NCBI GenBank assembly: GCA_963702475.1
Contig: CAVPCT010000005.1
Location: forward strand, 800,001-864,000
Direction: 5' to 3'
Origin: an uncultured Thermoleophilia bacterium
Lineage (GTDB): Bacteria; Actinomycetota; Thermoleophilia; UBA2241
Length of the DNA: 64,000 nucleotides
The position numbers and the translations under genes are program-made. The notes below the pieces were generated by a model that did no database searches, had not been told where the DNA came from, and saw only the letters and a list, made by a program, of their open reading frames with translations. Below are positions 1 through 17,019 of the stretch, in pieces (within the stretch, counting starts at the first letter, position 1; the number at the start of each line of letters is the position of its first letter).

Positions 1-463
1 CGCAGCGACGCTCGTACTCCGCCACGGTCACCGTGACGCGGTAGGCGTCGTCGCGCTGCAGGACCTCACCCTGCGACAGGCCGACGGCGGCCGCACTGAG
101 GCTGTCGACGGCGGCCGCGTCGCCGGTGCCGGCGAGCTCCTGGAACGCGCGCGCCAGCAGGAAGTTGCCGGCCGAGACGGCCATCTCGACCCCGAACGCG
201 TGCGCGACGGTCGGGCGGCCGCGGCGCAACTCCGCGCGGTCCAGCACGTCGTCGTGCACCAGTGTCGCCATGTGCAGCAACTCGACGGCGGTGGCGCCGC
301 GCAGGGCGGCTCGGCTGAGCGGCCGATCCGCGCGTGCGCAGAGCAGCGCGAGCAAGGGACGCACGCGCTTGCCGCCGGCCGCCAGCGTGGCCCGGCAGGC
401 CTCGCCGAGGGCCCCGGGCGGGCCGGAAGCCACCGCGTCAAGACGGCGCTCCACACGCTCCAT
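1..463 (-). CDS. Polyprenyl diphosphate synthase (heptaprenyl/octaprenyl type), runs off window edge
   Basis: Not in ORF track. Manual translation from ATG at 463: MERVERRL...AAGGKRVRPLL...AVELLHMATLVHDDVLD..RRG..SAGNFLLARA. Contains GGKRxRP and the first DDxxD motif. Start may extend upstream to an in-frame CTG at 526. Confidence 0.9.
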   Translation of the reverse strand, partial: MERVERRLDAVASGPPGALGEACRATLAAGGKRVRPLLALLCARADRPLSRAALRGATAVELLHMATLVHDDVLDRAELRRGRPTVAHAFGVEMAVSAGNFLLARAFQELAGTGDAAAVDSLSAAAVGLSQGEVLQRDDAYRVTVTVAEYERRC

Positions 464-522
464 GGCGCGTCCGTAGCGCACCTTCTGCCGGGCGGAGGCC
501 CAGACCAGCTCCGGCCGGCCGC

Positions 523-1296
523 TCAGTGCCCCCCCTCGCCGTCCCAGGGCACCTCGCCCACGTGCAGGGCGACGGCGCCGAAGCCGAGACGTCTGTACCG
601 CAGACGCACGAGGCCGGCGCGGCTCATGAGCGCGGCCAGCTCGCCCGCTCCAGGAAACGCCGCCACGGACGCCGGCAGGTACGCGTAGGCGCGTGGGTCA
701 CCGGCCACGAGACCGCCGAGCCGAGGGACCACCTGGCCCATCCACACGCGCTGCACCGCCCTTTGCGGCCCGGCCGGCGCACTGGTGGATTCGAGGCACA
801 CCACCCTGCCGCCCGGCCTGGTGACCCGCCGCATCTCGGCGAAGGCGCGCGGCACGTCGGGCACGTTGCGGACCCCCCACCCCACGGTGACGGCGGAGAA
901 CGCACCGTCGGCGAACGGGAGGGCGAGGAGATCACCGCGGACGAACGAGACGCGCGCCGAGAGGCCGGGGTCGCCGCCGACCTTCTCCCGCGCGACCTGC
1001 AACATGTCGCCGGTGAGATCGAGGCCGACCACCGTGCACCGCGGCCAGGCGGCAGCGACGGCGAGCGTGAGGTCGCCGGTACCGCAGCAGGCGTCCAGGG
1101 CACGGCCGCCGTCGCCGACCAGCGCCTGCACGGCGGCGAGCCGTCGCCAGCCGGCGTCCAGGCCCAGCGTCATGAGGCGGTTCATGAGGTCGTAGCGGCG
1201 CGCGATGCCACTGAACATGGACTCGATCCGGGCCGGGTCGCGGTCCATGGGCAGCTCGGGCCCGCGGCGGGCGGGCCCGGCCTGATCGCGAGGCAT
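523..1296 (-). CDS. menG: Demethylmenaquinone methyltransferase (UbiE/MenG family)
   Basis: MFSGIARRYDLMNRLMTLG, LDACCGTGDL SAM motif, GVRNVPD. ATG at 1296 overlaps the UbiX stop (TGATG). Confidence 0.9.
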   Translation of the reverse strand: MPRDQAGPARRGPELPMDRDPARIESMFSGIARRYDLMNRLMTLGLDAGWRRLAAVQALVGDGGRALDACCGTGDLTLAVAAAWPRCTVVGLDLTGDMLQVAREKVGGDPGLSARVSFVRGDLLALPFADGAFSAVTVGWGVRNVPDVPRAFAEMRRVTRPGGRVVCLESTSAPAGPQRAVQRVWMGQVVPRLGGLVAGDPRAYAYLPASVAAFPGAGELAALMSRAGLVRLRYRRLGFGAVALHVGEVPWDGEGGH

Positions 1297-1898
1297 CAGA
1301 CCGCGCCTCCATCCCAGGGCGGGAACAGGGTCTGCTCGAAGCCGAGCGCCGCCATGATCTTGCCGGCCACGTGATCGACGGCGTCCTGCAGGCTCTGGGG
1401 GCGCGAGTAGAACGCCGGCATGGCCGGGAGCACCACGGCCCCGGCCTCGGCCAGTTCGAGTAGCCGCCGGAGGTGGATCCGGGTGAGCGGCGTCTCCCGG
1501 GGGACGATCACGAGCGGCCGCCGCTCCTTGAGAGCGACGTCGGCGGCCCGGTGGATGAGCGTGCGAGTGGTACCGAGCGCGATGTGGGCGGCAGCGGCCA
1601 CCGAGCACGGACACACGACGACGGCATCCGGCGCGCTGCTGCCGCTGGAGGCCGGCGCAGCGAGGTCGTCCGGCGCGTACACGGCCGCCGTCACACCGGC
1701 GAGCTCGAGAAAAGCCCGAACGACGTCGGCCCGGTGACGGGCGTGCAGCTCGAGCTCGTGATCCAGCACCAGCACGCCGCTGTCGGAGATGCACAGCTGC
1801 AGGCTGCAGCCGGCCGCGTCCAGCGCCTGGACAAGGCGCAGGGCATACGGCGCCCCGCTGGCGCCACTCACGCCCACGAACACGCTCCTGGGGGTCAT
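1296..1898 (-). CDS. ubiX: Flavin prenyltransferase UbiX family
   Basis: VGVSGASGAPY, ASSGS, VCPCS, LIHRAADVALKERRPLVIVPRETPL, PAMPAFY. Confidence 0.92.
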   Translation of the reverse strand: MTPRSVFVGVSGASGAPYALRLVQALDAAGCSLQLCISDSGVLVLDHELELHARHRADVVRAFLELAGVTAAVYAPDDLAAPASSGSSAPDAVVVCPCSVAAAAHIALGTTRTLIHRAADVALKERRPLVIVPRETPLTRIHLRRLLELAEAGAVVLPAMPAFYSRPQSLQDAVDHVAGKIMAALGFEQTLFPPWDGGAV

Positions 1899-1944
1899 CC
1901 CTGTCCTCATGCTGGCCGCCGCGACGGCGCCGTTCACCCGCGCG

Positions 1945-3165
1945 TCAGTTGACGCTGCTGCCAGGCTCGTGACACTGGCCGCCCCAGCAACCCTGCGGGC
2001 CGGTGCCGCCGTTGCCGTGGCACTTCATGCACACGCTGCCCTGGTTGTACACGTGGTTCGGGTGGTCGGCGACGAAGGCCGCGGAGTGTGGCAGCGCGAC
2101 GCCGTGACAGCTGGTGCAGAACTGGCTGGAGTGGCACTTGCCGCAGAGCGACGGGTTCGAGAGAGCCACACTGGAGTGCTGACCCATCCAGCTGCTCGGG
2201 TGCGGCATCTGCAGGCCGTGGCAGGTGATGCACGGGTCTTTGCCGTGGCACTTGACACACACCTGGGGATCCTTCTGACCCACGGTGTCGTGCCGCGCCG
2301 TCCAGTCGTCCGGGTGCGGGATCACGACGCCGTGGCAGTCGATGCAGAACCTGGGGTCGTTCTTGAGGTGACACTCTACGCAGATCTCCTTGCCGCGCTC
2401 GTTCACGATGGGACCGTGCTGCTTGATCCACCGCGCCGGGTGCGGCATGGCGAGGCCGTTGTGGCACTCCTCGCACACGACCTCCCCCTTGTGACAGCCG
2501 GCGCAATCCGCGACCGTCATGGGGGCGGTCATGGCCACGTTGATGTCGGCCGGCGGGCGGCCGCCGACGTGGCAGGTGTTGCAGTCGTCCGGCAGCTGCT
2601 TGCCGTCGTGGCAGCGCGCGCAGATGGGCATCTTGTTCTGCGATGCACGCGCGATCTCCAGCTGCGTGCCGGGGTGGCTGATGCTGGCGTGGCAGGTGAT
2701 GCACTGGTAGCCGGCCTCGCGCAGGCCCGTGTGATTGACGCGGATGCCGTCGATCACCTGGTCGCGCTCGATCTGCGACTTGGGGTGACACTGCACGCAG
2801 TTGTTGGTGCCGACCGCGGTGGTCAGCGGACGCTCATACGTGTCGGACACGTACAGGATGAGGTTCGTGACGCCCTGCAGGTTACGGATCGCGTAGTTGA
2901 ACACGCCGGGCTTGGTGTGGCACTGCTGGCAGCCCACTCCGGCCTGGTAGTGGGCGGAGCGCTTGTACGAGTCCACCTCCGGCTGCACGAGATGACAGAG
3001 CTCGCACGTCCTGATGTTGTTGACGGCAGAGAACCCGATGACGGCCACGACGACGATCAGGGCGACGGCAGCGAGCACCCCGAAGATCCAGGCCGCCGGC
3101 ACTGTACCCTCGAGCAGGACCCGTTTGCCGGAGTCGCCGTTCTTGCCTTTGCGGGACACGGTCAC
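1945..3165 (-). CDS. Membrane-anchored multiheme cytochrome c with NapC/NrfH-like N-terminus, 15 CxxCH + 1 CX4CH
   Basis: Single N-terminal TM helix; 15 CxxCH counted plus terminal CWGGQCH; repeated PH-x3-W/F-x3-H di-heme modules. Confidence 0.92.
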   Translation of the reverse strand: MTVSRKGKNGDSGKRVLLEGTVPAAWIFGVLAAVALIVVVAVIGFSAVNNIRTCELCHLVQPEVDSYKRSAHYQAGVGCQQCHTKPGVFNYAIRNLQGVTNLILYVSDTYERPLTTAVGTNNCVQCHPKSQIERDQVIDGIRVNHTGLREAGYQCITCHASISHPGTQLEIARASQNKMPICARCHDGKQLPDDCNTCHVGGRPPADINVAMTAPMTVADCAGCHKGEVVCEECHNGLAMPHPARWIKQHGPIVNERGKEICVECHLKNDPRFCIDCHGVVIPHPDDWTARHDTVGQKDPQVCVKCHGKDPCITCHGLQMPHPSSWMGQHSSVALSNPSLCGKCHSSQFCTSCHGVALPHSAAFVADHPNHVYNQGSVCMKCHGNGGTGPQGCWGGQCHEPGSSVN

Positions 3166-4208
3166 TCGCTCACCGGTTGGGTGGTGGCCCCGGCCGCCGG
3201 CGAGACGCGCGGCTCCGGCGTGTAGTCGACACCGTCGAACAGACTGTGGGCGCGCGGGTCACCCGAGGCGTGCTGCACGTGGCAGGCCTGGCAGTTGTCC
3301 AGGACATGGCAGTTGAAGCAGGTCGGGACCCCGGCTTTCTCCACGGACTGGGGGTGCGCGGCGACGTAGTCCTCGGGGTGGGGCATCTTCACCTGGTGGC
3401 AGGTGCGACAGTACTCCTTGACGTCGTGACACTGCACGCACGTCTCGCGTCCCTGCGCCTCGGCGGTCTTGCCGTGGGTGGTCATCCAGACGGCGGCGTG
3501 CGGCATCTCGATGCCCGAGTGGCAACTGCTGCAGGCGTCCTTCTGCAGGTGACAGGCGCTGCACGTGGAGAGGATGCCGATGGCCCCGTGACGCGTGTCC
3601 CAGCCGGCCTGGTCGTGGGTGGCCGGAACGGCGCTGCTCACCGGCTTCTCGTGGCACTGGTCGCAGCGGGACGTCGCGACCGTACCGTCGTCCGCCCGGT
3701 AGCGGTTGTTGTGGCAGATGAGGCACTGGTCCATCGCGGGGTAGGTGCGCGACCCTTCGGGTACCGCTTCGCCGTGCGCGACTGTGGAGTGGCAGCGTTG
3801 ACAGAGGAATCCCGCCTCGATGAGGTGCTGGTGGTCCACGCGGATGCCCTGGGCGCTGATGGTCGTGAACAGGCTGTCGTTGGTGTGGCAGCGGCGGCAC
3901 GACTGGTTGAGCACGAAGCCAAGGATGGGCTTCTCGTAGTCACCCGTGATCTGAGCGATGGGCTGTTGCAGGGCCTCAAGCTTGGAGGTGAGGAAGAACA
4001 GCGGGCCCGGCTTGGTGTGGCACTGCTCGCAGTTGACGCTCCCGTGAGCTGACTGCTCCCACCAGGCGACGTACGGCTCGTGGCTCTTGCACGCGGAACA
4101 GAACGTGGCCGTGGATGTGGCCGCAAGCAGCACGCCGATGAGCACGACCAGGACGGTGAGGCCGATGGCTGCGATGGTGATGCCGCGTGCGGTGAGACGG
4201 AACTTCAC
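3162..4208 (-). CDS. Membrane-anchored multiheme cytochrome c with NapC/NrfH-like N-terminus, 11 CxxCH + 1 CxxCK
   Basis: N-terminal TM helix, then FCSACKSH...SAHGSVNCEQCH; 11 CxxCH; same architecture as 1945..3165. Confidence 0.92.
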   Translation of the reverse strand: MKFRLTARGITIAAIGLTVLVVLIGVLLAATSTATFCSACKSHEPYVAWWEQSAHGSVNCEQCHTKPGPLFFLTSKLEALQQPIAQITGDYEKPILGFVLNQSCRRCHTNDSLFTTISAQGIRVDHQHLIEAGFLCQRCHSTVAHGEAVPEGSRTYPAMDQCLICHNNRYRADDGTVATSRCDQCHEKPVSSAVPATHDQAGWDTRHGAIGILSTCSACHLQKDACSSCHSGIEMPHAAVWMTTHGKTAEAQGRETCVQCHDVKEYCRTCHQVKMPHPEDYVAAHPQSVEKAGVPTCFNCHVLDNCQACHVQHASGDPRAHSLFDGVDYTPEPRVSPAAGATTQPVSE

Positions 4209-4211
4209 GTG

Positions 4212-5162
4212 CTATCGGCGGACCGAGCCGGCGTGAGGGAAGCGGGCATGGACGGCGTCGCTGTGACACAGACTGCACGCGTATCCATTGGTGTGCCTGG
4301 CAGCCGAGCCGTGGCACCTGAGGCAGGTGGAGTTGCCCGGGATGGGCATCCGGGAAGCGTGGAACCTCTTGCCGTGACACGAGTTGCAGGTGAGTCTGGA
4401 GCCCGCGGGCGCCGCGTGGAGGGCCTTGTTGTGACAGCCGGACAGGTTGCAGCTGAGCTTCTTCGTGACCTTCGTGGAGTGCTGCGCGAGCTTCTGCGCA
4501 CCGGTGCCGGTGCCCTTGTGACAGGTGGCGCACTTGCCGCCGGAGACCGTGCGACCGGCGTGCCTCATGGAGTGGCAGCCGGCGCACTTCTTGAAGCCGG
4601 GGCTCGTGGCCTGGTAGGTGTGGTAGGCGTTCGCCGCGGTATGGCACGCCTCGCAGTCGACCGTGCCGGCGTGCTGTTTCTGCTTGTGACAACGCGAGCA
4701 CGGCGACATGCCGGGCGAACCGCCGTTGTGGTGCGGGCTGACGCCCGGCTGGGCGACGCCGTCACTCGGCGCGTGACAGCCGAGGCACTGCGGAAGCGAG
4801 CCGCGGTGGGGATCCGTGCCGTGGGCGAACTCCTTGCCGTACACCACGCCCTGGCTCTGCAGGTGGCACGTGCCGGCGCAGTCGGCGCTGGTGGCCGACA
4901 TGGACGACGTGTCCTGGCCGGGTGCGTGACACGACCAGCACGTGTACCCCTTGAGGCTCTCGAACCCGGTGTGGCAGGACGTGCAGGAGGCGTCTGTGGG
5001 CTTGCCCTGAAGGTGGCAGACGCAGCCGGTGGCGCCGTCGTGCTTCCAAGGGTCGTAGGCGGCGGCCGGCGCGGTGAAGAGGGCTGCGCCGGCGGAGACG
5101 CCGACGAGTGCGAGAGCAGCCGCGGCGACCGCGACCGCCACCCACCGGCGGATACCTCTCAC
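4212..5162 (-). CDS. Secreted multiheme cytochrome c, 10 CxxCH + CxCH + CX3CH + CX4CH
   Basis: GTG at 5162 after a GGGAG RBS; Sec-like signal (RR, hydrophobic stretch, APAAA); no further TM segment; motifs counted by eye. Confidence 0.88.
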   Translation of the reverse strand: MRGIRRWVAVAVAAAALALVGVSAGAALFTAPAAAYDPWKHDGATGCVCHLQGKPTDASCTSCHTGFESLKGYTCWSCHAPGQDTSSMSATSADCAGTCHLQSQGVVYGKEFAHGTDPHRGSLPQCLGCHAPSDGVAQPGVSPHHNGGSPGMSPCSRCHKQKQHAGTVDCEACHTAANAYHTYQATSPGFKKCAGCHSMRHAGRTVSGGKCATCHKGTGTGAQKLAQHSTKVTKKLSCNLSGCHNKALHAAPAGSRLTCNSCHGKRFHASRMPIPGNSTCLRCHGSAARHTNGYACSLCHSDAVHARFPHAGSVRR

Positions 5163-5320
5163 GCTGACTCCCTTCCCCTCACCGACGGCGCTCTCCACAG
5201 CGCCTCGCCGGCCTCACGGCTTCCTCCACACAGAGTCGCGGCTCCGCGACCGTACTCGTACCCCTCGAGCGCGCCGACGCCCCTCCGATGCGGCCACGCT
5301 CCGCGCCAGTGTACCAGTCC

Positions 5321-5338
5321 TCGTGAAGCCGTTCACCG
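5321..5338. promoter_or_regulatory. Putative Rex operator
   Basis: TCGTGAA-GCCG-TTCACCG matches the GTGAA-N4-TTCAC core of the Rex box (TTGTGAA-N4-TTCACAA). It lies upstream of the three-cytochrome cassette, and rex is in the same cluster. Confidence 0.6.
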
Positions 5339-5389
5339 TCGAAAAGCGGTCCGCGACGGCTGAACGCCCCGAGCGTGACACCGGCTGCG

Positions 5390-5398
5390 ATTGTACCA
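5390..5398 (-). promoter_or_regulatory. Putative extended -10 element (TGGTACAAT) for cytochrome cassette 5162->1945
   Basis: TGnTACAAT on the minus strand in the intergenic gap; identical 9-mer at 9457..9465. Confidence 0.45.
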
Positions 5399-5441
5399 CA
5401 CGGGGTATCTCGCGACCGCATGTACCAGGCACTCGCCACGC

Positions 5442-6311
5442 TCAGAGCACCAGCGTTGCGGCGATGACGATGGCGCCGTAGAGAAGCCCGACCGCGCCGT
5501 TCACCGTCATGAAGCTCATGCCCACCCGGTCGAGCCCGCGGCGGGCGATGTCGACGTGCGGCCAGGCGAGCAGCGCGAGCACCGCGGTCAGCCCCGCCCA
5601 GTAGACCGGCCCCAGGCCACAGAGGGCGCCCACCGCGGCCAGCAGCACGCCGGCGCCCACGTGAGAGGCCGCCGCGACCCACAGCGCGCCGCGCGGACCC
5701 ACGGCCACCGGCACGGAGTGCAGGCCCTCGCGGCGATCGACGTCGAGGTCGAAGACCGCGTAGATCACGTCGAAGCCGCCCACCCACAGGCCGACGGCGA
5801 AGAACAGCAGCCAGGGGACCGCCCCGAGACGCCCGCTGACGCCCAGCCACGCGGCCGCCGGCGCGAGACCCAGCGTGAGGCCGAGCGCGTAGTGGCAGAA
5901 CCACGTGAAGCGCTTGGCGTAGGGATAGAAGACGAAGGCGGCCAGCGGCACGGGCCAGAGGTACCTGCACGGCTCCGAGAGCTGGAACGCGGCGAGCACG
6001 AGCAGGCTCACCGAGACGGCTGTGAAGACCCAGACCTCGCGCCGCCCCAGACGACCCGCCGGCAGCTCGCGCTGCGACGTACGCGGGTTGCGCGCGTCGA
6101 GCTCGGCGTCGATGAGCCGGTTCAGTGCCATGGCCGCGCTGCGCGCCCCCACCATGGCCACCGTGATCCACAGAAGCTGACTCCAGGTGGGGGCCCCCCT
6201 CGCGGCCAAGAAGGCGCCCGCGTACGCGAAGGGAAGTGCGTAGATGCTGTGCTCGATCTTGACCAGCCGGGCGAACAGCGCCGGCTTGGCGGCGGCGCCT
6301 GACCGGGTCAA
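5442..6311 (-). CDS. UbiA-family prenyltransferase, MqnP-like (futalosine pathway)
   Basis: VKIEHSIYALPFAY, ARSAAMALNRLIDAELDARNPRT, YPYAKRFT, WVGGFDVIYA; multiple TM helices. Confidence 0.9.
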   Translation of the reverse strand: MTRSGAAAKPALFARLVKIEHSIYALPFAYAGAFLAARGAPTWSQLLWITVAMVGARSAAMALNRLIDAELDARNPRTSQRELPAGRLGRREVWVFTAVSVSLLVLAAFQLSEPCRYLWPVPLAAFVFYPYAKRFTWFCHYALGLTLGLAPAAAWLGVSGRLGAVPWLLFFAVGLWVGGFDVIYAVFDLDVDRREGLHSVPVAVGPRGALWVAAASHVGAGVLLAAVGALCGLGPVYWAGLTAVLALLAWPHVDIARRGLDRVGMSFMTVNGAVGLLYGAIVIAATLVL

Positions 6312-6327
6312 GCCCAGAGGCCCCGCG

Positions 6328-6663
6328 TCAGCCCAGTCGTTCCGCCGCCGCGCCGCCCTGCCCGGCCTGGTGCCCGGACTCGGCTCCCTCGGGCGCGATC
6401 GGAACGTGCGCGAACTTCTCGAGCAGGAAACAGGCGATGGCCACGATGACCGCGAACAGGCCGATCACGAACAGCACCGTGTAGACGATGATGCTGGCGG
6501 GCGAGGTGATGCCCAGGGTCGCGCTGATCGTCCACGCGGCCACCGCGATACCCCAGTTCACGAGCGACAGGCGCAGCAGGAAACGCCGCGCCTTCTTGTC
6601 GCGTCCCGAGGCCTCCTGATGGGCCCGGTGGGAGCCGAGCGGAGCTGTCGACATCTCAGCCAA
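6328..6663 (-). CDS. Small two-TM membrane protein
   Basis: Two hydrophobic helices; overlaps the stop of the upstream cytochrome b/c gene. Start could be ATG at 6654. Confidence 0.7.
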   Translation of the reverse strand: MAEMSTAPLGSHRAHQEASGRDKKARRFLLRLSLVNWGIAVAAWTISATLGITSPASIIVYTVLFVIGLFAVIVAIACFLLEKFAHVPIAPEGAESGHQAGQGGAAAERLG

Positions 6664-8428
6664 AGACCATGATGAACAGTGCCCAGAGGATGAACGCCGT
6701 CATGAGCAGTGCCATGAATCCCATGACCAACGTTATCACCCACCAGAGGGCGTCCGAAAGTAGCGTGCGCCACGTGATGGTGCGCTCCACGAGGACCTGG
6801 TCGAGCGTGCCCTCGCGCACGTGCCGCGCATACTCCAGCGGGCGGTCCTCGCGGTAGTGCTCGACCGGCAGCGTACCGGTGAAGATCACCTTGTCGATGG
6901 GGAACGACTCGGGCCGCAGGTGGGCGCTGAAAAAGTGCACGAAGATGAAGATGACGCCCATGGCCAGCAGCGCCTCGCTGGAGTGGATGACGAGGGCGAT
7001 GTTGACGAACACGCCGGGCACGAGCTGGGTCGTCCTCTCCGGGAACCACATCATGAAGCCGGTGACGCCGATGATGACGGTGCCGGCGCCCAGAGAGAGA
7101 TAGTCGAACTTCTCCCAGTACGTGTAGCGGTCGAACTGCGGCTTGGGTCCGCGGCCGAAGAACCAGGAGAACATGCCGATCATGTCCTGCAGGTCTTTGA
7201 AGCTCGGCAGCATGGAGTTGGGGCCGCGCAGGTTCTTGCCCCGCTTTCGCGCGACCTGCACGACCATGTAGGTCACCTCGGACACGAAGTAGAAGACGGT
7301 GACGACGGCCGCGATGCGGTGATACACGCCGGCGGAGGTGACCCCGCCGAAGAGGTCCATGAACCACTGCGCCCACGGCGTGTCCTTGTACTTGAGCGGC
7401 ATGCCCGTGAAGACGAGCACGGTGAAGCTGACGATGACGAGGATGTGCATCCAGCGGTGGAACACGTTGAAGCGGTGGAACTCGATGCGCTTGTCGCCGA
7501 GCTTGTCGCGGTGCCGCGGCCGCGAGTACAGGCCGTCCCTGAAGCCCCGATAGACGTAGAGACCCGTGTGCACGGCAGCGAACGTGAACACGATGGAGAT
7601 GAGGAGCACGTAGGCCATCCAGAAGATCCAGATCTCCCACGACGAGCTGGGGCTCGCCGGGTTGACGTGCACCTTGAACCCGGCGAAGTTCTCGTTGGCG
7701 CCCGGGTGGCACGCCTGACACGTGGCGACCAGGTTCTCCTCCGACACGGAGCTGGTCGGATCCGACGCCGGGAGGATGTGGTGGCCGGTGTGGCAGTCGC
7801 TGCACACGGCCGTTTCGCCGTCGCCTAGCAGGTAGGCCTTGCCGTGGTAGCTGTCGAGGAAGGTCTCGCTCTTGTCACCGTGGCACTTGGTGCACATGGC
7901 GAGCTCGCCCTCTCGGAACTCCCTGGTGCCCGGCGGGACGATGTTGTGCGCGTCGTGGCAGTCGCCGCACAGCGGAGCCCTGCCGTCGCTCCCCGCGAGC
8001 GTGAGCTTGCCGTGGAACGAGCCGTCGTACATCTGGGCGACGTCGCCGTGGCAATCCTCGCACGCCTCGAACTTGGCGACCCGGAGCCAGTCCTCGGTGA
8101 CGCTCTCAGGGTGCATGCCGGCGTTGAAGCCGACGTGACAGCTCGTGCACGCCAGCTGACCGTGGAGCGAGCTCTCCAGCACGGGGCGCTGCACGTAGAT
8201 GCTCTTCTTCTCGCCGTTGACGTCGATGTACGCCGGCACCTTCTGGCCGTCGACCTCGATGAAGCCGTCGACGGGCCGCTGCCCGTGGCACTCGTAGCAG
8301 GCGTCGTTGTCGGCCGGTCCGCCGGCGGAGCCGCTCGACTGCGCGGCGGACCCGGCGGCGGCGACCGCGAGCAGCGCGAGCACGAAGAGGCAGACGAGGA
8401 CGCTGAAGGCTGGCCGGCGCGGTGTCAT
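6656..8428 (-). CDS. Multiheme cytochrome c (7 CxxCH) fused to a b-type cytochrome membrane domain, CbcL-like
   Basis: Signal peptide; 7 CxxCH; then about 6 TM helices with FHRWMH, YHR, YWEKFDY, IHSSEA and VHFF typical of FdnI/HydC-type cytochrome b. ATGA overlap with the upstream gene. Confidence 0.88.
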   Translation of the reverse strand: MTPRRPAFSVLVCLFVLALLAVAAAGSAAQSSGSAGGPADNDACYECHGQRPVDGFIEVDGQKVPAYIDVNGEKKSIYVQRPVLESSLHGQLACTSCHVGFNAGMHPESVTEDWLRVAKFEACEDCHGDVAQMYDGSFHGKLTLAGSDGRAPLCGDCHDAHNIVPPGTREFREGELAMCTKCHGDKSETFLDSYHGKAYLLGDGETAVCSDCHTGHHILPASDPTSSVSEENLVATCQACHPGANENFAGFKVHVNPASPSSSWEIWIFWMAYVLLISIVFTFAAVHTGLYVYRGFRDGLYSRPRHRDKLGDKRIEFHRFNVFHRWMHILVIVSFTVLVFTGMPLKYKDTPWAQWFMDLFGGVTSAGVYHRIAAVVTVFYFVSEVTYMVVQVARKRGKNLRGPNSMLPSFKDLQDMIGMFSWFFGRGPKPQFDRYTYWEKFDYLSLGAGTVIIGVTGFMMWFPERTTQLVPGVFVNIALVIHSSEALLAMGVIFIFVHFFSAHLRPESFPIDKVIFTGTLPVEHYREDRPLEYARHVREGTLDQVLVERTITWRTLLSDALWWVITLVMGFMALLMTAFILWALFIMVFG

Positions 8429-9456: not shown

Positions 9457-9465
9457 ATTGTACCA
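9457..9465 (-). promoter_or_regulatory. Putative extended -10 element (TGGTACAAT) for cassette 9369->6328
   Basis: Same 9-mer as at 5390..5398, about 90 nt upstream of the start codon. Confidence 0.45.
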
Positions 9466-9497
9466 CCCCGTACCTACGCTCGCCACACGCACGACCA

Positions 9498-9537: not shown

Positions 9538-9568
9538 GTGGACCGAGACTGCCGCCGGGCGCGGAGGC

Positions 9569-11005
9569 TCAGGAGAACGGCAGGCCGAGCTCGGCCCAGC
9601 GGTCCGTCACACGGCGCCGTATCAGGGGGTCCATGGCCAGCTCTTCGGGCCACTCGCGCGCATGGCCCTCGTCCGGCCAGGTCTTCGTGGCATCGATGCC
9701 CATCTTGGCGCCGTAGCGCGCGAAGGGGCTCGAGTGATCGAGCACGTCGAGGGGGCCGCGCACGATGACCGTGTCGCGCTCGGGGTCGACGTTGTTGAAC
9801 ACCCGCCAGGTCACTTCGCTGTAGTCGTGCACGTCCACGTGCTCGTCCACCACCACGACGAACTTGGTGAACATCATCTGCCCCATGCCCCACACCGCGC
9901 TCATGATCTTGCGCGCGTGGCCCGGGTACTCCTTGCGGATGCTGATGATGGCGCAGTCGTGGAACACGCCCTCGATGGGCAGGTCCATGTCGACGATCTC
10001 GGGCTGCACGAGCTGCAACAGCGGCAGGAAGAGGCGCTCGGTGGCCTTGCCGAGGTAGGCGTCCTCCATCGGCGGCTTGCCGACGATGGTGGCCGGGTAG
10101 ACGGGGTCGCGGCGGTGGCTCATGGCCGTGAGGTGGAACACCGGGTACTGGTCGGCCAGGGAGTAGTAGCCGGTGTGATCGCCGAACGGCCCCTCGAGCC
10201 GCGTCTCTCCCTTCTCCACGTAGCCCTCGAGGACGATCTCAGCGTCGGCCGGCACCTGCAGGTCGACGGTGGCGCACGGCGCCATGTCGACCGGCTCGCC
10301 GCGGAGGAAGCCGGCGAACATGAACTCGCTGATGCCCGGCGGAAGCGGCGCCGTGGCGGCGTAGGTGACCGCGGGGTCGGTACCGAGGGCGACGGCGACC
10401 TCCGTACGCTCGCCCGCCTCGCGCAGGTTGGAGGCGCCGTCGTGGTGGACGTGGATGTGCAGACCGGTGGTGCGCGAGTCGAACACCTGCAGGCGGTACA
10501 TGCCGGCGTTCTGGCGACCCTGGCGGTCTTTGGTCACCACGATGGGCAGCGTCATGAACGGACCGCCGTCGCCGGGCCAGGTGGTGAGCACCGGCAGGCG
10601 CGTGAGGTCCGGCGGGTCGACGACGACCTCACGCCACAGCGCCTTCTTGCCGTACCTGGGGCCGTACGAGGCCAGCTCCTTGAGCTGGCCGAGCGCCTTG
10701 ACCTTGCCGACGAGGCCGCTGGGGACCTGCAACTCGAGGAGGCCGCCGATGCGCTTCGCGATGTCGTCGAGCGGCGCCCCGAGCGCCAGCTCCAGGCGCC
10801 TGAACGAGCCGAGCTGGTTCATGAGGACCGGCACGGCGGAGCGCCCTGCCGGCATCAGGGGGCGCTCGAAGAGCAGCGCCGGCCCGTGCGCCTTGCTGGC
10901 GCGGTCGGCGATCTCGGCCATCTCGAGATACGGATCGACCTCGGGACGCACGCGAGCGAGCTCGCCCTCGCGTTCGAGCAGACTGATGAACGCTCGCAGG
11001 TCCAC
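9569..11005 (-). CDS. ubiD: UbiD-family decarboxylase (menaquinone biosynthesis, MqnL-like)
   Basis: Starts at GTG 11005 (DLRAFISLLEREGEL); NAGMYRLQV, EGPFGDHTGYY, TIVGKPPMED, KMGIDATK. Confidence 0.93.
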   Translation of the reverse strand: MDLRAFISLLEREGELARVRPEVDPYLEMAEIADRASKAHGPALLFERPLMPAGRSAVPVLMNQLGSFRRLELALGAPLDDIAKRIGGLLELQVPSGLVGKVKALGQLKELASYGPRYGKKALWREVVVDPPDLTRLPVLTTWPGDGGPFMTLPIVVTKDRQGRQNAGMYRLQVFDSRTTGLHIHVHHDGASNLREAGERTEVAVALGTDPAVTYAATAPLPPGISEFMFAGFLRGEPVDMAPCATVDLQVPADAEIVLEGYVEKGETRLEGPFGDHTGYYSLADQYPVFHLTAMSHRRDPVYPATIVGKPPMEDAYLGKATERLFLPLLQLVQPEIVDMDLPIEGVFHDCAIISIRKEYPGHARKIMSAVWGMGQMMFTKFVVVVDEHVDVHDYSEVTWRVFNNVDPERDTVIVRGPLDVLDHSSPFARYGAKMGIDATKTWPDEGHAREWPEELAMDPLIRRRVTDRWAELGLPFS

Positions 11006-11006
11006 G

Positions 11007-11606
11007 TCAGGCCGCCACCCCAGGCGACAAGGCGTCGAGGGCGCGCACGAGAGGCGCGGCGTCGCGCAGGTGGAGAGCCGGCGCCTGGACCCGAGCGAGG
11101 ACGGGTACGTCGACCGCGCCGCCCGCGGCCAGAGCCTCATCGAGCGCCTCGAAGAGCAGCGCGGCCTGCCGGAGGGCGACGCCCTGGCGCAGGGCGGCGA
11201 GGCCGCCGACGGTGTACGCCCACAAGGCGTCGTCGGCGGCGAACGGCGCCTGCAGGCTGCGCAGGTACGAGCAGGCTGCCATGAGACGCGCCAGCAGGCC
11301 GACGGCCGCCGCGTCGCCGCGCGCGGCGACGATGTGCAGGCCGCGCGCGTACAGGAAGTCGCCGGCGAGGAGCGCGTTCTCGCGGCACGCCTGCTCGCCG
11401 GCCGCGCACACGCGGCTCTGGCGATAGTGGAACAGGTAGCCCTCGTAGATGAGCTCGATGGCGCGCACGTACTCGGCGTCGTCCCCGCCGTCGAGCTCGT
11501 CGAAGAGCAGACCCCAGCGCAACCGGGGCTCGGCGCCGGCGGGCGGCCCAAAAGCAGCGCCCGCCTCCCGGAGACCCCGCGCGACCGGAGGGACCGAGAC
11601 CGGCAT
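11007..11606 (-). CDS. Degenerate isoprenyl-synthase-fold protein lacking DDxxD
   Basis: AIELIYEGYLFHY and ALLAGDFLYARG align by eye with AVELLHMATLVHDD and AVSAGNFLLARA of the synthase at 1..463. Confidence 0.6.
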   Translation of the reverse strand: MPVSVPPVARGLREAGAAFGPPAGAEPRLRWGLLFDELDGGDDAEYVRAIELIYEGYLFHYRQSRVCAAGEQACRENALLAGDFLYARGLHIVAARGDAAAVGLLARLMAACSYLRSLQAPFAADDALWAYTVGGLAALRQGVALRQAALLFEALDEALAAGGAVDVPVLARVQAPALHLRDAAPLVRALDALSPGVAA

Positions 11607-11607
11607 G

Positions 11608-12249
11608 TCAGACCTGCTCGTGGTCCAGATAGAACGTCAGCGACATGAGCTCGCTCGAGAGGTCGACCTGGCGCACGAGAGCATCTTCGGGCTTCTGGAC
11701 CTTGACGGGCGCGAAGTTGAGCATGGCCCGCACGCCGGCCGCGGCGAGGCGGTCGACGGTGGCCTGCGCCTCCGCCGCCGGCACGGTGACGAGGGCGATG
11801 TCCACGGCCTCGGAGGCGCAGAAACCCTCGAGATCGGCGATGCTGCGCACGCGTCCCGCGCCGTAGCTCGCGCCGATCACCGAGGCCGAACTGTCGAACA
11901 TCCCGACCAGGCGGAACCCCTGTTCCGTGAACCCCCGGTACCGGGCGAGCGCAGTACCCAGGAGGCCGGCTCCGACGATGATCACGTTCCACGAGTGGTC
12001 GAGGCCGAGGCAGTGGGAGATCTCGTCGATGAGGCGGGAGACCTCGTAGCCCACGCCGCGCGTGCCGAACTCTCCGAAGTAGGAGAAGTCCTTGCGGATC
12101 TGGGCGGCGTTGAGGCCGATGCTCTCCGCGAGGTCCTTGCTGGAGACGCGGCCGACGCCGCGGGCACGCAGCTCGCGCAGCTTGCGCAGGTACACCGCCA
12201 GCCGCGGCACAGTGACGGCGGGGACGTCGTTCTTGTCAACGTTGCGCAC
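11608..12249 (-). CDS. rex: Redox-sensing transcriptional repressor Rex
   Basis: RLAVYLRKL, VSSKDLAE, QIRKDFSYFGEFGTRGVGYEV, IIVGAGLLG, LNFAP. Confidence 0.95.
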   Translation of the reverse strand: MRNVDKNDVPAVTVPRLAVYLRKLRELRARGVGRVSSKDLAESIGLNAAQIRKDFSYFGEFGTRGVGYEVSRLIDEISHCLGLDHSWNVIIVGAGLLGTALARYRGFTEQGFRLVGMFDSSASVIGASYGAGRVRSIADLEGFCASEAVDIALVTVPAAEAQATVDRLAAAGVRAMLNFAPVKVQKPEDALVRQVDLSSELMSLTFYLDHEQV

Positions 12250-12252
12250 GTA

Positions 12253-13545
12253 TCACCCCTCCCCGGCCAAGAAGAAGCGCTGCGCCGCCGCGGCGGTCAG
12301 AGCGAGGTCATCGTCGGTGAGCGCCAGGGAGACCATGGCCGCCTCGAACTGCGACGGGGCGAGGTACACGCCACTCTCCAGCATGTGGCGCCAGTACCGC
12401 GCGTACAAGGCGGTGTCGGCGTGCTTCGCGTCGGCGAAGCTGGTGACCGGCCCCTCGCAGAAGAACATCGTCATCATGGCGCCGACGCGGTTGAGCGTGT
12501 AGGGCTGCTCGCCGGCGGAGGCGGCGATGATGAGCGCCTCGGCGATCTCCGCGCCCAGGTCCTCGAGCCGCTCGTAGACGCCCGGCGCTCCGAGCACGCT
12601 GAGCGTGGCGGCGCCGGCCGCCATGGCAAGCGGGTTGCCGGAGAGCGTGCCCGCCTGGTACGTGGAGCCGAGCGGCGCCACCGTCTCCATGACGTCGCGC
12701 CTCCCGCCGAAGGCGCCCACCGGCAGGCCGCCGCCGATGATCTTGCCGAGCGTGGTGAGGTCGGGCACGACGCCGAAGCGCGCCTGCGCGCCGCCCCAGG
12801 CCACGCGGAAGCCGGTGATGACCTCGTCGAAGATGAGCAGCGCACCGGCCGCCGTGCACGACTCGCGGCAGGCCTCGAGGAAGCCGGGCACCGGCGGGAC
12901 CACGCCCATGTTGCCGGCCACCGGCTCGACGATGAGCGCGGCGATCTCCTCGCCGCGCTGCTCGAAGAGCGCGGTGAGGGCCTCCACGTCGTTGTACTCG
13001 ACCAGCAGGGTGTCGGCGGTGGTGCCCTTGGTGACACCCGGACTGTCGGGCAGCGAGAGCGTGAGCACACCGCTGCCGGCGGCGGCCAGGAACGCGTCCG
13101 AGTGGCCGTGGTAGCAGCCGGTGAACTTGACCACCTTCTCGCGACCCGTGAAGCCGCGAGCCACGCGCACGGCGCTCATGGTGGCCTCGGTGCCCGAGTT
13201 CACCATGCGCACCAGCTCGATGGAGGGCACGGCGTCGCAGATCAGGCGCGCCAGCTCGACCTCGAGGTCGGTGGGCGCGCCGTAGCTCGTGCCGCGGTCG
13301 ATCTGGGCGTGCAGGCGGCCGACGACCTCCGGGTGACCCCAGCCGAGGATCATCGGCCCCCACGAAGAGACGAAGTCGACGAGCTCGTTGCCGTCGGCGT
13401 CCCACACATGAGAGCCGGAGGCGTGGTCGATGAAGAGCGGATACGGCATGCCGACGCCCTTCATGGCACGGACCGGCGAGTTGACGCCGCCCGGGATGTA
13501 CTGCTTGGCCTCGTCGAAGAGGCGCGCCGAGGTCTCTGTGTTCAC
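12253..13545 (-). CDS. hemL: Glutamate-1-semialdehyde 2,1-aminomutase
   Basis: PGGVNSPVRA, VNSGTEATMSA, GCYHGHSD, FDEVITGFR, LGKIIGGGLP, QAGTLSGNP. Confidence 0.97.
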   Translation of the reverse strand: MNTETSARLFDEAKQYIPGGVNSPVRAMKGVGMPYPLFIDHASGSHVWDADGNELVDFVSSWGPMILGWGHPEVVGRLHAQIDRGTSYGAPTDLEVELARLICDAVPSIELVRMVNSGTEATMSAVRVARGFTGREKVVKFTGCYHGHSDAFLAAAGSGVLTLSLPDSPGVTKGTTADTLLVEYNDVEALTALFEQRGEEIAALIVEPVAGNMGVVPPVPGFLEACRESCTAAGALLIFDEVITGFRVAWGGAQARFGVVPDLTTLGKIIGGGLPVGAFGGRRDVMETVAPLGSTYQAGTLSGNPLAMAAGAATLSVLGAPGVYERLEDLGAEIAEALIIAASAGEQPYTLNRVGAMMTMFFCEGPVTSFADAKHADTALYARYWRHMLESGVYLAPSQFEAAMVSLALTDDDLALTAAAAQRFFLAGEG

Positions 13546-14219: not shown

Positions 14220-14235
14220 TCCGGAAGCCGGCCGC

Positions 14236-14727: not shown

Positions 14728-14796
14728 CGTGACCGGGGCCGGCGCGACCGTGGCGGCGCGCGCGCCGGTCGTGCTCTGCGCCGGCGCGCCGGCGCC

Positions 14797-15948
14797 TCAG
14801 CCCATCGCCGGCGCGCACCAGCCCTTGGGCACGTACGCGCAGTAGGGCTCCTCGGCCATGTAGTCGCCGGTGGCCTCGTAGGCCCGCGCGCGGCAGCCGC
14901 CGCAGACCTTCTTGAACTCGCACGCGCCGCACTTGCCCTTGAGCCCGTCGAAGTCGCGGAGCTCGTTGAAGAGCGGCGAGTCGCGCCAGACCTCGGGGAA
15001 CGTCTGCTCGCGCACGTTGCCGGCCACCTTGTCGAAGTAGCCGCAACCCTGCACGTCGCCGACGTGGCTGATGAAGCAGAAGCCGATGCCCGCGAGGCAG
15101 CCGCGGCTGAGCGTGTTCATGCCGCCGTGACTGTGCGGGTGCACCTCGAGCTTGCGGCCCTGCGCCTTGGCGCGCTGCCGCATGACGCGCCAGTAGTGCG
15201 GCACGTCGGTGGGCTTCATGAACAGATCGCTCTCCTGCTGGGCGTCGTACATCCACTCGAGCGCGCGTTCGTACTCCTCCGGCGGCAGCTCCTGGGCCTC
15301 GAGCTCCTTGCCGCGACCCGTCGGCACCAGCATGAACGGGTGGAACGAGACGGCGCCGAGGTCGGTGGCCAGCTGCAGCAGGTCGGGGAGGTAGTGCGCG
15401 TTGAGCCTGGTGATGGTGCTGTTGATCTGCACCTCCACCCCGGCGTCCAGGCAGTTGCGGATGCCCTGCACCGCGCCGTCGAACGCGCCGGGCACACCGC
15501 GGAACTCGTCGTGCTCCTTCGCCCCGGGAAAGTCGATGGAGATGCTGACACGTGCGATGCCCACGTCGTGCATGCGTCGTGCGACCTCGGGGGTGACGAG
15601 GGTGCCGTTGGGCGACATCACGGTGCGCAGGCCCGCCCCGATGGCGTGCTCGGCGATGGCGAAGATGTCGGCGCGCATGAGCGGGTCGCCGCCGGTGAGG
15701 ATGAGGATCGGGTTCGCGAACGAGGCGATCTGGTCGACGAGGGTGAAGCACTCCTCGGTGCTCAGCTCGCCGGGGTACGGGCCGTGGACGGCCGAGGCCC
15801 GGCAGTGCACGCAGGCCAGGTTGCAGCTGCGCGTGACCTCCCAGGCGACGACGCGAGGCGGCGCCGGGCCGTCTCCGGAGGCGGCGGCCATGCCGTGCGG
15901 GTGACCGCCGGGGTGGCGCTGTTGGTTTTGAGGGTGTGCATGGTCCAA
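14797..15948 (-). CDS. ahbD: Radical SAM/SPASM heme b synthase, AhbD-like
   Basis: TTG start after AGGAG; His-rich HPGGHPH N-terminus; WEVTRSCNLACVHCRA; SPASM cysteines GCLAG...CGACEFKKVCGGCRARA; next to hemB and hemL. Distinction from AhbC rests on N-terminal similarity only. Confidence 0.8.
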   Translation of the reverse strand: MDHAHPQNQQRHPGGHPHGMAAASGDGPAPPRVVAWEVTRSCNLACVHCRASAVHGPYPGELSTEECFTLVDQIASFANPILILTGGDPLMRADIFAIAEHAIGAGLRTVMSPNGTLVTPEVARRMHDVGIARVSISIDFPGAKEHDEFRGVPGAFDGAVQGIRNCLDAGVEVQINSTITRLNAHYLPDLLQLATDLGAVSFHPFMLVPTGRGKELEAQELPPEEYERALEWMYDAQQESDLFMKPTDVPHYWRVMRQRAKAQGRKLEVHPHSHGGMNTLSRGCLAGIGFCFISHVGDVQGCGYFDKVAGNVREQTFPEVWRDSPLFNELRDFDGLKGKCGACEFKKVCGGCRARAYEATGDYMAEEPYCAYVPKGWCAPAMG

Positions 15949-16044
15949 ACCGGCTCCTAGTGTGCCAGAGCAGCATGAGGGGCGCAACGCGGGCGCTCGG
16001 GGCGCGCCCTCACTCGGCGCCTCGATGGCCCGCCCGCCTCCGCC

Positions 16045-17019
16045 TCAGCCCTGCAGCCAGCGGGCGATGTCTTTGGCGTGGTAGGTGATGATGAGATCGG
16101 CCCCGGCGCGCTTGATGCCGGTGATGGCCTCCATGACGGCGCGCTGCTCGTCGAGCCAGCCGTTGGCGGCCGCGGCCTTGATCATCGCGTACTCGCCGCT
16201 CACGTTGTAGGCGGCCAGCGGGAAGCGGGTCTCCTGCTTGACGGCGTGGATCACGTCGAGGAACGGGATCGCCGGCTTCACCATGATGATGTCGGCGCCC
16301 TCCTCGATGTCGAGCAGCGACTCGCGCACGGCCTCCTCGAGGTTGGCCGGGTCCATCTGGTAGGTCTTGCGGTCGCCGAACGCCGGAGCGGATTCGGCGG
16401 CCTCGCGGAACGGGCCGTAGAACGCCGAGGCGAACTTGCTGGAGTAGGCCATGATGATCGTGTCCGGCAGACCCTCGTCGTCGAGCGCGTTGCGGATGGC
16501 GGCCACGCGCCCGTCCATCATGTCGCTGGGGGCGACGATGTCGGCGCCGCTCTCGGCGTGCGTGACGGCCATCTTGGCGAGCAGCTCGAGCGTGACGTCG
16601 TTGAGGATCTCGCCGTCCTGCACCACACCGCAGTGGCCGTGGTCCATGTACTCGCAGAGGCACACGTCGGTGATGACGACCAGGTCGGGGAACTCGTCCT
16701 TGATGGCGCGGACGGCCAGCTGGACGATGCCCTCGGGGTCGTAAGCGCCGGTCGCGGCTGAGTCCTTGTGCGACGGGATGCCGAACAGCAGCACCGCGGG
16801 GATGCCCAGGTCGACCGCCTCGCGCACCTCGGGGAGCAGGTTGCCGATGGAGAGCTGGTAGCACCCCGGCATGGAGCCGATCGGGTTCTTGACGTTCTCC
16901 CCCGCGATCACGAAGTACGGGTAGATGAGGTCGTCGAGCTTGAGCGTCGTCTCGCGCAGCATGCTGCGGATGGCCGGCGTGCGGCGCAGGCGGCGCATAC
17001 GGTAGCTGGGGTAGTACAT
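16045..17019 (-). CDS. hemB: Porphobilinogen synthase
   Basis: [21 protein letters not shown] (Zn-type), [34 protein letters not shown]. Confidence 0.97.

Follow-up and report, generated by a model that had tools for sequence, protein, structure and literature searches.

Why should genes for multihaem c-type cytochromes lie between the genes that make menaquinone, and where would the electrons carried by such cytochromes go? The question is raised by a locus in an uncultured Thermoleophilia bacterium (assembly of 4.3 Mb in nine contigs, 70% G+C, completeness 93.8%, contamination 6.5%). The window, that is, the whole 64-kb stretch analysed, is G000:C5:800001-864000; the locus occupies its positions 1-17019, where nearly every real gene is on the − strand. 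An initial annotation made from the letters of the sequence had described five co-oriented cytochrome genes in two cassettes between the ubiD-, ubiA- and ubiX-type genes, and this arrangement was confirmed at window positions 1945-9369 (−). The two cassettes are read here as modules of menaquinol-oxidizing cytochromes that would serve electron export in a monoderm; judged from sequence comparison, this reading is given a probability of roughly 0.55.

The cassette genes are listed below in order of transcription.
8425..9369, − strand: cyt12b, membrane-anchored NapC/NirT-type cytochrome with 12 haem motifs (11 CxxCH and one CxxCK); PF03264, 40.3 bits.
6656..8428, − strand (open reading frame open to 8458): CbcL-like cytochrome with a signal sequence, 7 CxxCH and a b-type membrane domain; PF01292, 41.6 against a cut-off of 30.1.
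6328..6654, − strand: tm111, small membrane protein with hydrophobic segments; no Pfam or NCBIfam family.
4212..5162 (alternative start 5198), − strand: cyt10s, secreted-type cytochrome with 12 haem motifs (10 CxxCH, CxxxCH and CxxxxCH); N-terminal hydrophobic stretch followed by Ala-rich residues.
3162..4208, − strand: cyt12, membrane-anchored NapC/NirT-type cytochrome with 12 haem motifs (11 CxxCH and CxxCK); PF03264, 55.4 bits.
1945..3165, − strand: cyt16, membrane-anchored NapC/NirT-type cytochrome with 16 haem motifs (15 CxxCH and CxxxxCH); PF03264, 46.3 bits.

The five cytochrome genes encode 54 CxxCH motifs, exactly the number counted previously, and five atypical ones (two CxxCK, one CxxxCH and two CxxxxCH) where six had been claimed. 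All 59 were conserved in the aligned orthologues (45, 32, 26, 27 and 17 rows, the window included), which argues that they are genuine haem sites and not chance occurrences. The predicted set of several quinol oxidoreductases and a secreted cytochrome was likewise found to be encoded, in the form of three anchored NapC/NirT-type proteins, one CbcL-type protein with c and b parts and one cytochrome with a signal peptide.

The gathering cut-off of PF03264 is 24.1 bits. Like NrfH, CymA, NapC and TorC, the three anchored proteins have one N-terminal helix (by a simple hydropathy scan, residues 24-42 in cyt12b, 10-28 in cyt12 and, as the single hydrophobic helix, 27-45 in cyt16) followed by a four-haem core; unlike these proteins, they carry 8-12 extra C-terminal haems and have no adjacent gene for a partner reductase. 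The motif of haem 1 in NrfH is CxxCHxM. In cyt12 and cyt12b, by contrast, this motif, which is the one nearest the membrane, is CxxCK: it reads CSACK in cyt12 (K in 30 of 32 rows) and CTSCKAM, i.e. CxxCKxM, in cyt12b, the motifs of which are conserved in 45/45 rows, with K at this position in 27 and H in 18. The family's CxxCH at haem 1 is present in cyt16, where all motifs are conserved in 25-26 of 26 rows. Two of the three NapC-type proteins, cyt12 and cyt12b, are for this reason assigned by their motifs to a variant of the NapC/NirT family at haem 1. The match of cyt16 to a solved structure by sequence was weak (3ov0_A, 1.4e-7), and its AlphaFold2 model (25-row alignment) had a mean predicted local distance difference test score (pLDDT) of 45.2 and was uninformative on shape or length. 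The likely start of cyt10s is the GTG at 5162, behind a GGGAG box kept in relatives; among profiles only generic cytochrome c3/c7 families matched this protein, and no solved relative was found by sequence.

The NapC-type character of these proteins invites a different explanation, in which NapC- and CbcL-type quinol dehydrogenases feed enzymes for soluble substrates outside the membrane, as NrfH, NapC and TorC do, with no exit through the wall; the substrates might be nitrite, hydroxylamine or sulphur compounds, turned over by OcwA-like or HAO-like octa- or nonahaem proteins, or the partners might be molybdoenzymes. The N-terminal regions do match the NrfH and TorC models weakly, but the scores stay far under the equivalog cut-offs (50.4 and 45.1 bits against 134.2 for NrfH, TIGR03153; 22.6 against 455 for TorC). 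The anchors carry 12-16 haems each against 4-5 in NrfH, NapC and TorC, profile scans found no NrfA-type gene in the locus, and no reductase gene was found in or beside the cassettes, either in the window or in the 41 cassette-bearing loci of relatives onto which the window's 18 proteins were mapped. The genome-wide evidence that bears on this explanation is given below with the OcwA homologue.

In the CbcL-like protein (likely start ATG 8428) the seven CxxCH motifs are conserved in 16-17 of 17 rows and His 297, 338, 380, 492, 508 and 513 are invariant in 40 homologues. Its model contains six long helices at a moderate mean pLDDT of 65.5; the best Foldseek match was to 1kqf_C, the gamma subunit of E. 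coli formate dehydrogenase N (FdnI), with E 5.7e-4, probability 1.00 and a target TM-score of 0.73. The modelled fold indicates a membrane domain of the FdnI/HydC type with two b haems. For the c domain a weak match to a solved structure was obtained (28pb_A, 7.8e-10), and no NCBIfam CbcL model matched the protein. Its plan is that of CbcL from Geobacter sulfurreducens as given in the available text of PMC6295460, with an N-terminal multihaem c half and a C-terminal six-helix HydC/FdnI-like b half; it differs in having 7 CxxCH where CbcL has nine CX2CH, so that the two are likened by architecture and not by the GSU0274 sequence, and in being encoded together with a 12-haem NapC-type protein, stop and start codons overlapping. 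A 2018 survey gives 0 CbcL-type homologues for Actinobacteria in the same part of that text, and a 2022 preprint (10.1101/2022.03.26.485925) notes that 8 of 19 genomes of Thermoleophilia encode homologues of CbcL. Homologues of ~930 residues in other phyla have repeat-expanded haem domains; that they might be fusions of cyt12b and the CbcL-like protein was considered and rejected, as cyt12b aligns to them weakly (E 7e-4 and 3e-4) and the CbcL-like protein with 37% identity over 551 residues. The neighbouring tm111 has 176 small homologues, 0 of them with a Pfam domain. Among the 60 syntenic loci described below it always accompanies the cassettes and is absent from cassette-less loci (that of locus L060 was missed by tblastn, yet is visible in the sequence).

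With a CbcL-type protein involved, electrons might also be thought to run inwards, so that the modules would reduce menaquinone with electrons from Fe(II), reduced humics, a partner cell or a cathode, as proposed for MtoC/MtrH. Menaquinone, being of low potential, is a poor acceptor for Fe(II) electrons, a Rex-type repressor frees its targets at high NADH, which suits an outlet better than an inlet, and proteins of the OcwA type are described as terminal reductases. The haem-copper oxidase and cytochrome bd of the genome could accept electrons entering in this way, and CbcL, MtoC and MtrH are treated as one family that is used by reducers and oxidizers alike (available text of PMC6295460); on balance, inward flow is considered improbable.

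The genes into which the cassettes fit, and those that precede them, were assigned by family profiles as follows.
16045..17019, − strand: hemB; PF00490, 506.9 bits.
14797..15948, − strand: ahbD, for the haem b synthase that belongs to the sirohaem-dependent route; TIGR04545, 505 (cut-off 500).
12253..13545, − strand: hemL; PF00202, 261 bits.
11608..12249, − strand: rex, redox-sensing repressor; NF003992, 252.2 against a cut-off of 226.
11007..11606, − strand: orf199, a conserved gene placed between rex and ubiD; not matched by any family in Pfam or NCBIfam.
9569..11020 (start approximate), − strand: menaquinone decarboxylase of the ubiD type, SCO4490 family; TIGR03701, 597.1 (cut-off 495.9).
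5442..6311, − strand: ubiA/MqnP-type menaquinone prenyltransferase; PF01040, 161 bits; TIGR01475, 268 against a cut-off of 180.8.
1296..1937, − strand: ubiX-type flavin prenyltransferase of the late menaquinone steps; TIGR00421, 180.5 against a cut-off of 108.9.
523..1296, − strand: menG/ubiE demethylmenaquinone methyltransferase; PF01209, 191.5 bits; TIGR01934, 208.8 against a cut-off of 158.35.
1..481, − strand (open reading frame 2..481): 5' part of a polyprenyl diphosphate synthase gene, the remainder lying below the window start.

The order of transcription is hemB, ahbD, hemL (with two + strand GNAT genes between ahbD and hemL), rex, orf199, ubiD, cyt12b, the CbcL-like gene, tm111, ubiA, cyt10s, cyt12, cyt16, ubiX, menG and the start of the polyprenyl diphosphate synthase gene. 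The MqnP models score 252-272 with UbiA, under their cut-offs; in the continuation of the polyprenyl synthase gene (L094:17547-17999) all model matches were below the cut-offs, this piece being a fragment. Below the window the same string goes on with MqnE, MqnA/D-type and MqnC genes (PF02621, 220.6 bits; for the futalosine genes near the window, TIGR03699 gave 488.8 against a cut-off of 428.1 and TIGR03700 gave 488.1 against 434.55), so that, as far as family profiles tell, the complete futalosine route to menaquinone is encoded in one co-directional block. Into this block the cytochrome genes put 3 kb between ubiD and ubiA and 3.2 kb between ubiA and ubiX. The stop codon of cyt12b overlaps the likely ATG of the CbcL-like gene (ATGA), tm111 begins 1 nt past the stop codon of the latter, and ubiA begins 16 nt past tm111; from cyt10s through cyt12, cyt16 and ubiX to menG the spacings are +3, -4, +7 and -4 nt. 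Such spacings and overlaps indicate that the cytochrome genes are coupled to ubiA and ubiX. In Streptomyces coelicolor the UbiD-, UbiA- and UbiX-type genes SCO4490-SCO4492 are also neighbours, and NCBIfam models are named after SCO4490 and SCO4491; there, unlike here, no cytochrome genes and added promoters intervene, and the same adjacency was found in 14 cassette-less relatives with both flanks in view.

The identities given to hemB, ahbD, hemL and rex in the initial annotation hold; the Pfam or NCBIfam scores of UbiD, AhbD, UbiX, MenG, Rex, HemB and HemL all exceed the curated cut-offs. Its proposal that a single locus makes both the quinone and the haem of the cytochromes is borne out for the quinone, the early and late menaquinone genes being co-directional. 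The haem part is not specific to cytochromes, because hemB, ahbD, hemL and rex lie upstream in cassette-less relatives as well. The haem synthesis genes are moreover split between this locus and a second place in the genome, since a cluster for system I cytochrome c maturation (CcmE, CcmF, an ABC ATPase and a CcmC-like protein) lies at G000:C3:450208-459076 next to hemC- and hemD-like genes. The finding of this Ccm cluster disposed of the suspicion that a cytochrome maturation system is missing; ResB (system II) was not found in the host genome.

How old the arrangement is was approached through relatives. A scan with UbiA yielded 80 loci, namely 60 syntenic ones (66-87% identity) and 20 others without synteny (~50%; Gaiellaceae and others), and layouts were sorted by mapping the window's 18 proteins onto the relatives' loci. 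All 60 syntenic loci belong to metagenome-assembled genomes labelled Thermoleophilia, Actinomycetes, Actinomycetota or Solirubrobacterales, their sources being soils, peat, lake sediment and anaerobic reactors. Of the data sets listed as containing such sequences none is registered as RNA; short contigs of relatives are present in two sediment runs that bear the label RNA-Seq, but that these are RNA is a guess. Cassette genes were found in 41 of the 60 loci and none in 19. With 'pair' denoting adjoining NapC-type and CbcL-type genes, and the three-gene cassette being cyt10s, cyt12 and cyt16, the layouts were as follows.
14 loci: a pair before ubiA, a second pair after it and the three-gene cassette (AtPB).
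2 loci (L006 and L059): as in the window, without the second pair.
1 locus (L007, AtP-): like the first layout, the contig ending before the three-gene cassette.
11 loci: tm111, ubiA, pair and cassette.
5 loci: tm111, ubiA and cassette, one of them (L036) with a remnant only.
8 loci: partial, the contig or the fetched flank ending.
19 loci: no cassette gene, 14 of them with both flanks in view.

The layout with two pairs and the three-gene cassette is the commonest in the window's clade. In the cassette-less loci, none of which has an open reading frame with at least three CxxCH anywhere in the locus, ubiD, ubiA and ubiX are adjacent, with a ubiD-ubiA gap of mostly 20-60 nt, as the synteny comparison proposed earlier had anticipated. 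One of the cassette-bearing loci holds, between ubiA and ubiX, a 148-residue, three-haem fragment of cyt12 (L036:11748-12194) with tm111 still in place, which looks like a cassette caught decaying. A tree of concatenated UbiD and UbiA was calculated by a quick method for 47 rows, leaving aside 14 of the 60 loci that lack one full-length hit per protein; its root was placed at the midpoint, for drawing only. Cassette-bearing loci fall on both sides of that root, the cassette-less state takes at least five changes on the tree, three of them forced by well supported branches, and a pair before ubiA occurs only in L049 and in one 12-row clade that includes the window (99 in the Shimodaira-Hasegawa-like approximate likelihood-ratio test, SH-aLRT). 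Repeated loss is the simpler account because of this pattern, the L036 remnant and the identical insertion points; subject to the midpoint rooting, the tree suggests that the cassettes are old and were repeatedly lost rather than recently inserted, and the description of them as inserted was misleading. Recent horizontal transfer of the cytochrome genes was rejected as unsupported: their third-position G+C content (0.89-0.94) is similar to that of their neighbours. Three loci (L024, L028 and L058) contain two paralogous NapC-type/CbcL-type pairs several kb apart after ubiA, of which one has 41-43% and the other 50-74% identity to the window pair; judging from these values, it seems to be the closer paralogue that was relocated to the position before ubiA in the clade of the window.

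Whether the cytochrome genes have promoters of their own was judged from short conserved elements.
9457..9465, − strand: TGGTACAAT, extended -10-like box upstream of cyt12b; exact match.
5390..5398, − strand: TGGTACAAT, the same box after ubiA; exact match.
5323..5336, no strand: GTGAAGCCGTTCAC, Rex-operator-like palindrome GTGAA-N4-TTCAC upstream of cyt10s, from a core scan of the genome.
5308..5316, − strand: TGGTACACT, third box of the extended -10 type, downstream of the palindrome (6 nt past the Rex-like core, 4 nt past the 18-nt operator match).

We read TGGTACAAT as an extended -10 box (TGn followed by TAnAAT). A shared copy before each cassette had been pointed out earlier; both copies are exact, and their conservation in relatives makes the element credible. 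The count alone is weak (three window matches at up to one mismatch against 0.99 expected, three being reached in 7 of 100 shuffles). The copy upstream of cyt12b is kept in 17/17 loci where cyt12b follows ubiD. The copy after ubiA occurs in 27 of the 60 loci, among them four cassette-less ones in which ubiX comes next, and so predates the cassette or is independent of it; it is probably an old internal promoter.

The palindrome and the TGGTACACT box lie ~146 nt before the cyt10s start, and an equivalent box (TGnTAnAnT) stands in the same place in 15 relatives. Exact GTGAA-N4-TTCAC cores number seven in the 4.3-Mb genome, where ~0.7 would arise by chance as estimated from base composition; the relatives' loci (1.38 Mb) hold 15, and 15/15 are upstream of cyt10s. 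The form common to the relatives is TTTTGAGGGTGAA-N4-TTCACAAGGAC-TGnTAnAnT, with fixed half-sites and a variable spacer. The Streptomyces consensus for the Rex operator is TTGTGAA-N4-TTCACAA, of which the relatives' site matches the right half (TTCACAA) completely and the left half for the most part. Position over a promoter and conservation fit a putative Rex operator at 5323-5336. Elsewhere on the contig (G000:C5:731228-733041) a GTGAATGAGTTCAC palindrome lies between a second rex-like gene and NuoE/NuoF-like genes; it is likely to be a second Rex target, and the occurrence of the core beside a rex-like gene supports it as the Rex box of this organism. Between the Rex-like box and cyt10s runs a leader of ~140 nt (window 5163-5300, −) that is conserved in 16 genomes (L005-L063) and holds a GGGGAGTGTGGCCGG block as well as a CGTCGC...GCGACG-type hairpin; its RNAalifold consensus was weak (-3.08 kcal/mol, 8 pairs) and it had no Rfam match. 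Neither an Rfam family nor a tRNA was found in the 64-kb window.

A candidate for a terminal carrier is encoded elsewhere in the genome. A secreted protein with nine CxxCH (C5:392036-393721), ~410 kb from the window, matches OcwA (6i5b_A, E 5.6e-20) and also the Carboxydothermus multihaem protein 6qvm_A; it scores 25.2 bits with PF02335, the NrfA family. The absence of porin and terminal reductase genes from the cassettes, recorded in the initial annotation, stands. The same annotation held that a known soluble terminal reductase encoded elsewhere as partner of the cytochromes would speak against its proposal, and in the OcwA homologue a candidate for such a partner has in part come to light. 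The order to which the host belongs was represented by 89 genomes (one family, 11 genera), of which 32, with a completeness of 90% or more and a contamination of 5% or less, are referred to as good. The distribution of the marker genes was as follows.
cyt16: 54 of 89 genomes.
CbcL-like membrane domain: 45 of 89, all inside the cyt16 set.
OcwA homologue: 50 of 89.
CcmF: 71 of 89.
23-haem protein: 11 of 89.

The good genomes divide into 16 with both cassette markers and 16 with neither; the OcwA homologue is present in 15/16 of the former against 1/16 of the latter, and CcmF is missing from nine good genomes, all of them cassette-less. In genus g10 the homologue occurs in exactly the five of 13 genomes that have the CbcL-like gene, while seven further genomes have the three-gene cassette only and lack it. 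Over all 89 genomes, cyt16 and the homologue occur together in 42, cyt16 alone in 12, the homologue alone in eight and neither in 27. The co-occurrence is a lead that carries weight and is not a test.

This candidate partner returns the argument to enzymes for soluble substrates. The PF02335 match of the OcwA homologue, an HAO-like protein with a PKD domain and 29 PF00384 matches in the genome all favour them, and OcwA itself reduces nitrite and hydroxylamine in vitro; its nitrite turnover, however, is very slow (kcat 1 per min; both from the available text of PMC6703420). Together with the haem numbers and equivalog scores given above, this makes the use of the modules for soluble substrates appear unlikely, though it is the alternative to be taken most seriously. 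The HAO-like multihaem protein (L087:8299-9822, G000:C6) has 7 CxxCH and one CxxxxCH before its C-terminal PKD domain and matches 6h5l_A with E 4e-29. The PF00384 set is unusually large, and two of the 29 contain an in-frame TGA (possible selenocysteine); a molybdopterin oxidoreductase gene with a gene for a 4Fe-4S subunit is present in the window itself (47724-50437, −).

A very high haem load, aerobic oxidases next to many anaerobic reductases in one genome and relatives from soils, peat and sediments of fluctuating redox state would also suit a different role, in which the ~59 haems would chiefly store electrons or buffer the redox state at the membrane during oxic/anoxic shifts. A mere store would scarcely explain the conserved and specific pairing of quinol-dehydrogenase-type domains, which implies directed flow, nor the facts that the cassettes are tightly linked to the OcwA homologue and that several complete genomes lack them together with the Ccm system, and this role is held to be very improbable.

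The host had been taken for a monoderm, and its genome looks like that of one, in that Omp85 was not found in it; the host is probably monoderm. In the order Omp85 occurs in one of 89 genomes and 0/32 good ones, and the sole match (G078:C4:51634-52464, in a genome that is 69% complete) may stem from a foreign contig in the bin.

Several observations weigh against electron export as set out here. The site in the window has three mismatches to the Streptomyces Rex consensus, and outside the window's clade no Rex-like core lies upstream of cyt10s (0/13 other loci). The match of the candidate partner to OcwA spans only residues 241-439 of 562, and the kinship of OcwA-type proteins with NrfA and HAO makes a soluble substrate conceivable for it. 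Among cassette-bearing genomes 12 of 54 lack the OcwA homologue and eight genomes have it without cyt16, although many of these are incomplete; the genomes are kin and not independent, so that the co-occurrence counts overstate the link, and the 23-haem protein is found in just the 11 genomes listed. The modules would share the quinone with other users, since a haem-copper oxidase, cytochrome bd, two nuo-like clusters and the 29 molybdopterin-family matches give menaquinone many clients, and the NapC-type proteins could feed the oxidases or molybdopterin enzymes instead. No OmcS- or CwcA-like wall-spanning protein turned up, no search aimed at such proteins having been made. Finally, the CbcL relatives MtoC and MtrH act in iron oxidizers, so that the flow could also run inwards (available text of PMC6295460).

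Weighed against these points, the favoured reading is that the locus would be a composite respiratory operon in which menaquinone genes are interleaved with two cytochrome modules, both oxidizing menaquinol on the outer side of the membrane. Module A (cyt12b, the CbcL-like gene and tm111), transcribed into ubiA, would pair a 12-haem NapC-type protein with a 7-haem protein bearing an FdnI-like b domain. Module B (cyt10s, cyt12 and cyt16, i.e. a secreted 12-haem and anchored 12- and 16-haem proteins) would run on into ubiX and menG from its own promoter, overlapped by the putative Rex-type operator, so that a high NADH/NAD+ ratio would induce the cytochromes together with the late quinone genes. 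Cytochromes encoded elsewhere, the OcwA homologue foremost, would receive the electrons next and hand them on to acceptors beyond the membrane, for example Fe(III), humic substances or other cells. For this scheme we infer quinol oxidation, Rex binding, the order of carriers, the outward direction, the acceptor, surface exposure and co-expression.

The scheme has a precedent in Thermincola, for which the chain ImdcA-PdcA-CwcA-OcwA has been drawn with OcwA as the terminal reductase of the cell surface (available texts of PMC7911101 and PMC6703420). As in T. potens and T. ferriacetica, a monoderm host would combine a secreted multihaem carrier with an OcwA-type nonahaem protein as the end point, and a membrane-anchored multihaem protein is thought to oxidize menaquinol. 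In contrast to Thermincola, which belongs to the Bacillota, the host is a member of the Actinomycetota, and three 12-16-haem NapC/NirT-type anchors plus a CbcL-type protein stand in place of one decahaem ImdcA; the genes, moreover, sit within the menaquinone operon under a Rex-like operator, with the OcwA homologue ~410 kb away. Literature searches, covering articles without their supplements, returned no description of the embedding in the operon, the Rex-like site, the CxxCK haem 1 or the co-occurrence with OcwA. Electron export of this kind is a known system, and the placing of its cytochromes in a menaquinone operon is undescribed in the literature searched.

Some further features of the locus and genome may be recorded. 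The gene orf199 keeps its place in nearly all of the 60 syntenic loci, with or without cassettes; it contains a LLAGDFLYARGL stretch reminiscent of polyprenyl synthases and may encode a small subunit of a prenyl diphosphate synthase. Adjoining hemB, in the window (17171-18445, −) and in many relatives, is a gene whose DUF4388 product has a cyclic-di-GMP-binding domain resembling that of MshE (NF053729, 50.9; cut-off 38). The scattered cytochromes of the host genome include a three-haem protein, a secreted 23-haem cytochrome with internal repeats (L085:8260-10500, G000:C8) and a membrane-anchored 5-haem cytochrome (L088:8247-10196, G000:C3:307245-309194) encoded directly downstream of a protein in which a ferric-reductase-like membrane domain (PF01794) is combined with one for NAD binding (PF00175); the last two genes, for a ferric-reductase-like flavoprotein and its 5-haem neighbour, could provide a second, quinone-independent route for electrons across the membrane.

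Electron export by monoderms is known in detail for only a few Bacillota and is almost unexplored in Actinomycetota. The cassettes, the Rex-like site and the OcwA homologue together offer a concrete pathway and a set of markers for soil and sediment data. That a whole family of uncultured Thermoleophilia, frequent in soils, peat, sediments and wastewater, possesses a self-contained electron-outlet supra-operon, in which transcription would link the making of menaquinone with dedicated multihaem quinol oxidases and which would be gated by Rex in one clade, is a wider and decidedly tentative proposal. If it is true, these actinobacteria would be Gram-positive reducers of iron and humic matter that have been overlooked, and the NapC-type proteins with a lysine (CxxCK) at the haem on the quinol side would constitute a new subclass of quinol dehydrogenase. 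Should the pathway itself operate as envisaged, a soil lineage of high abundance would have to be added to the organisms known to reduce iron and humic substances, and the CxxCK haem 1 would provide a handle on how NapC-type enzymes meet quinol.

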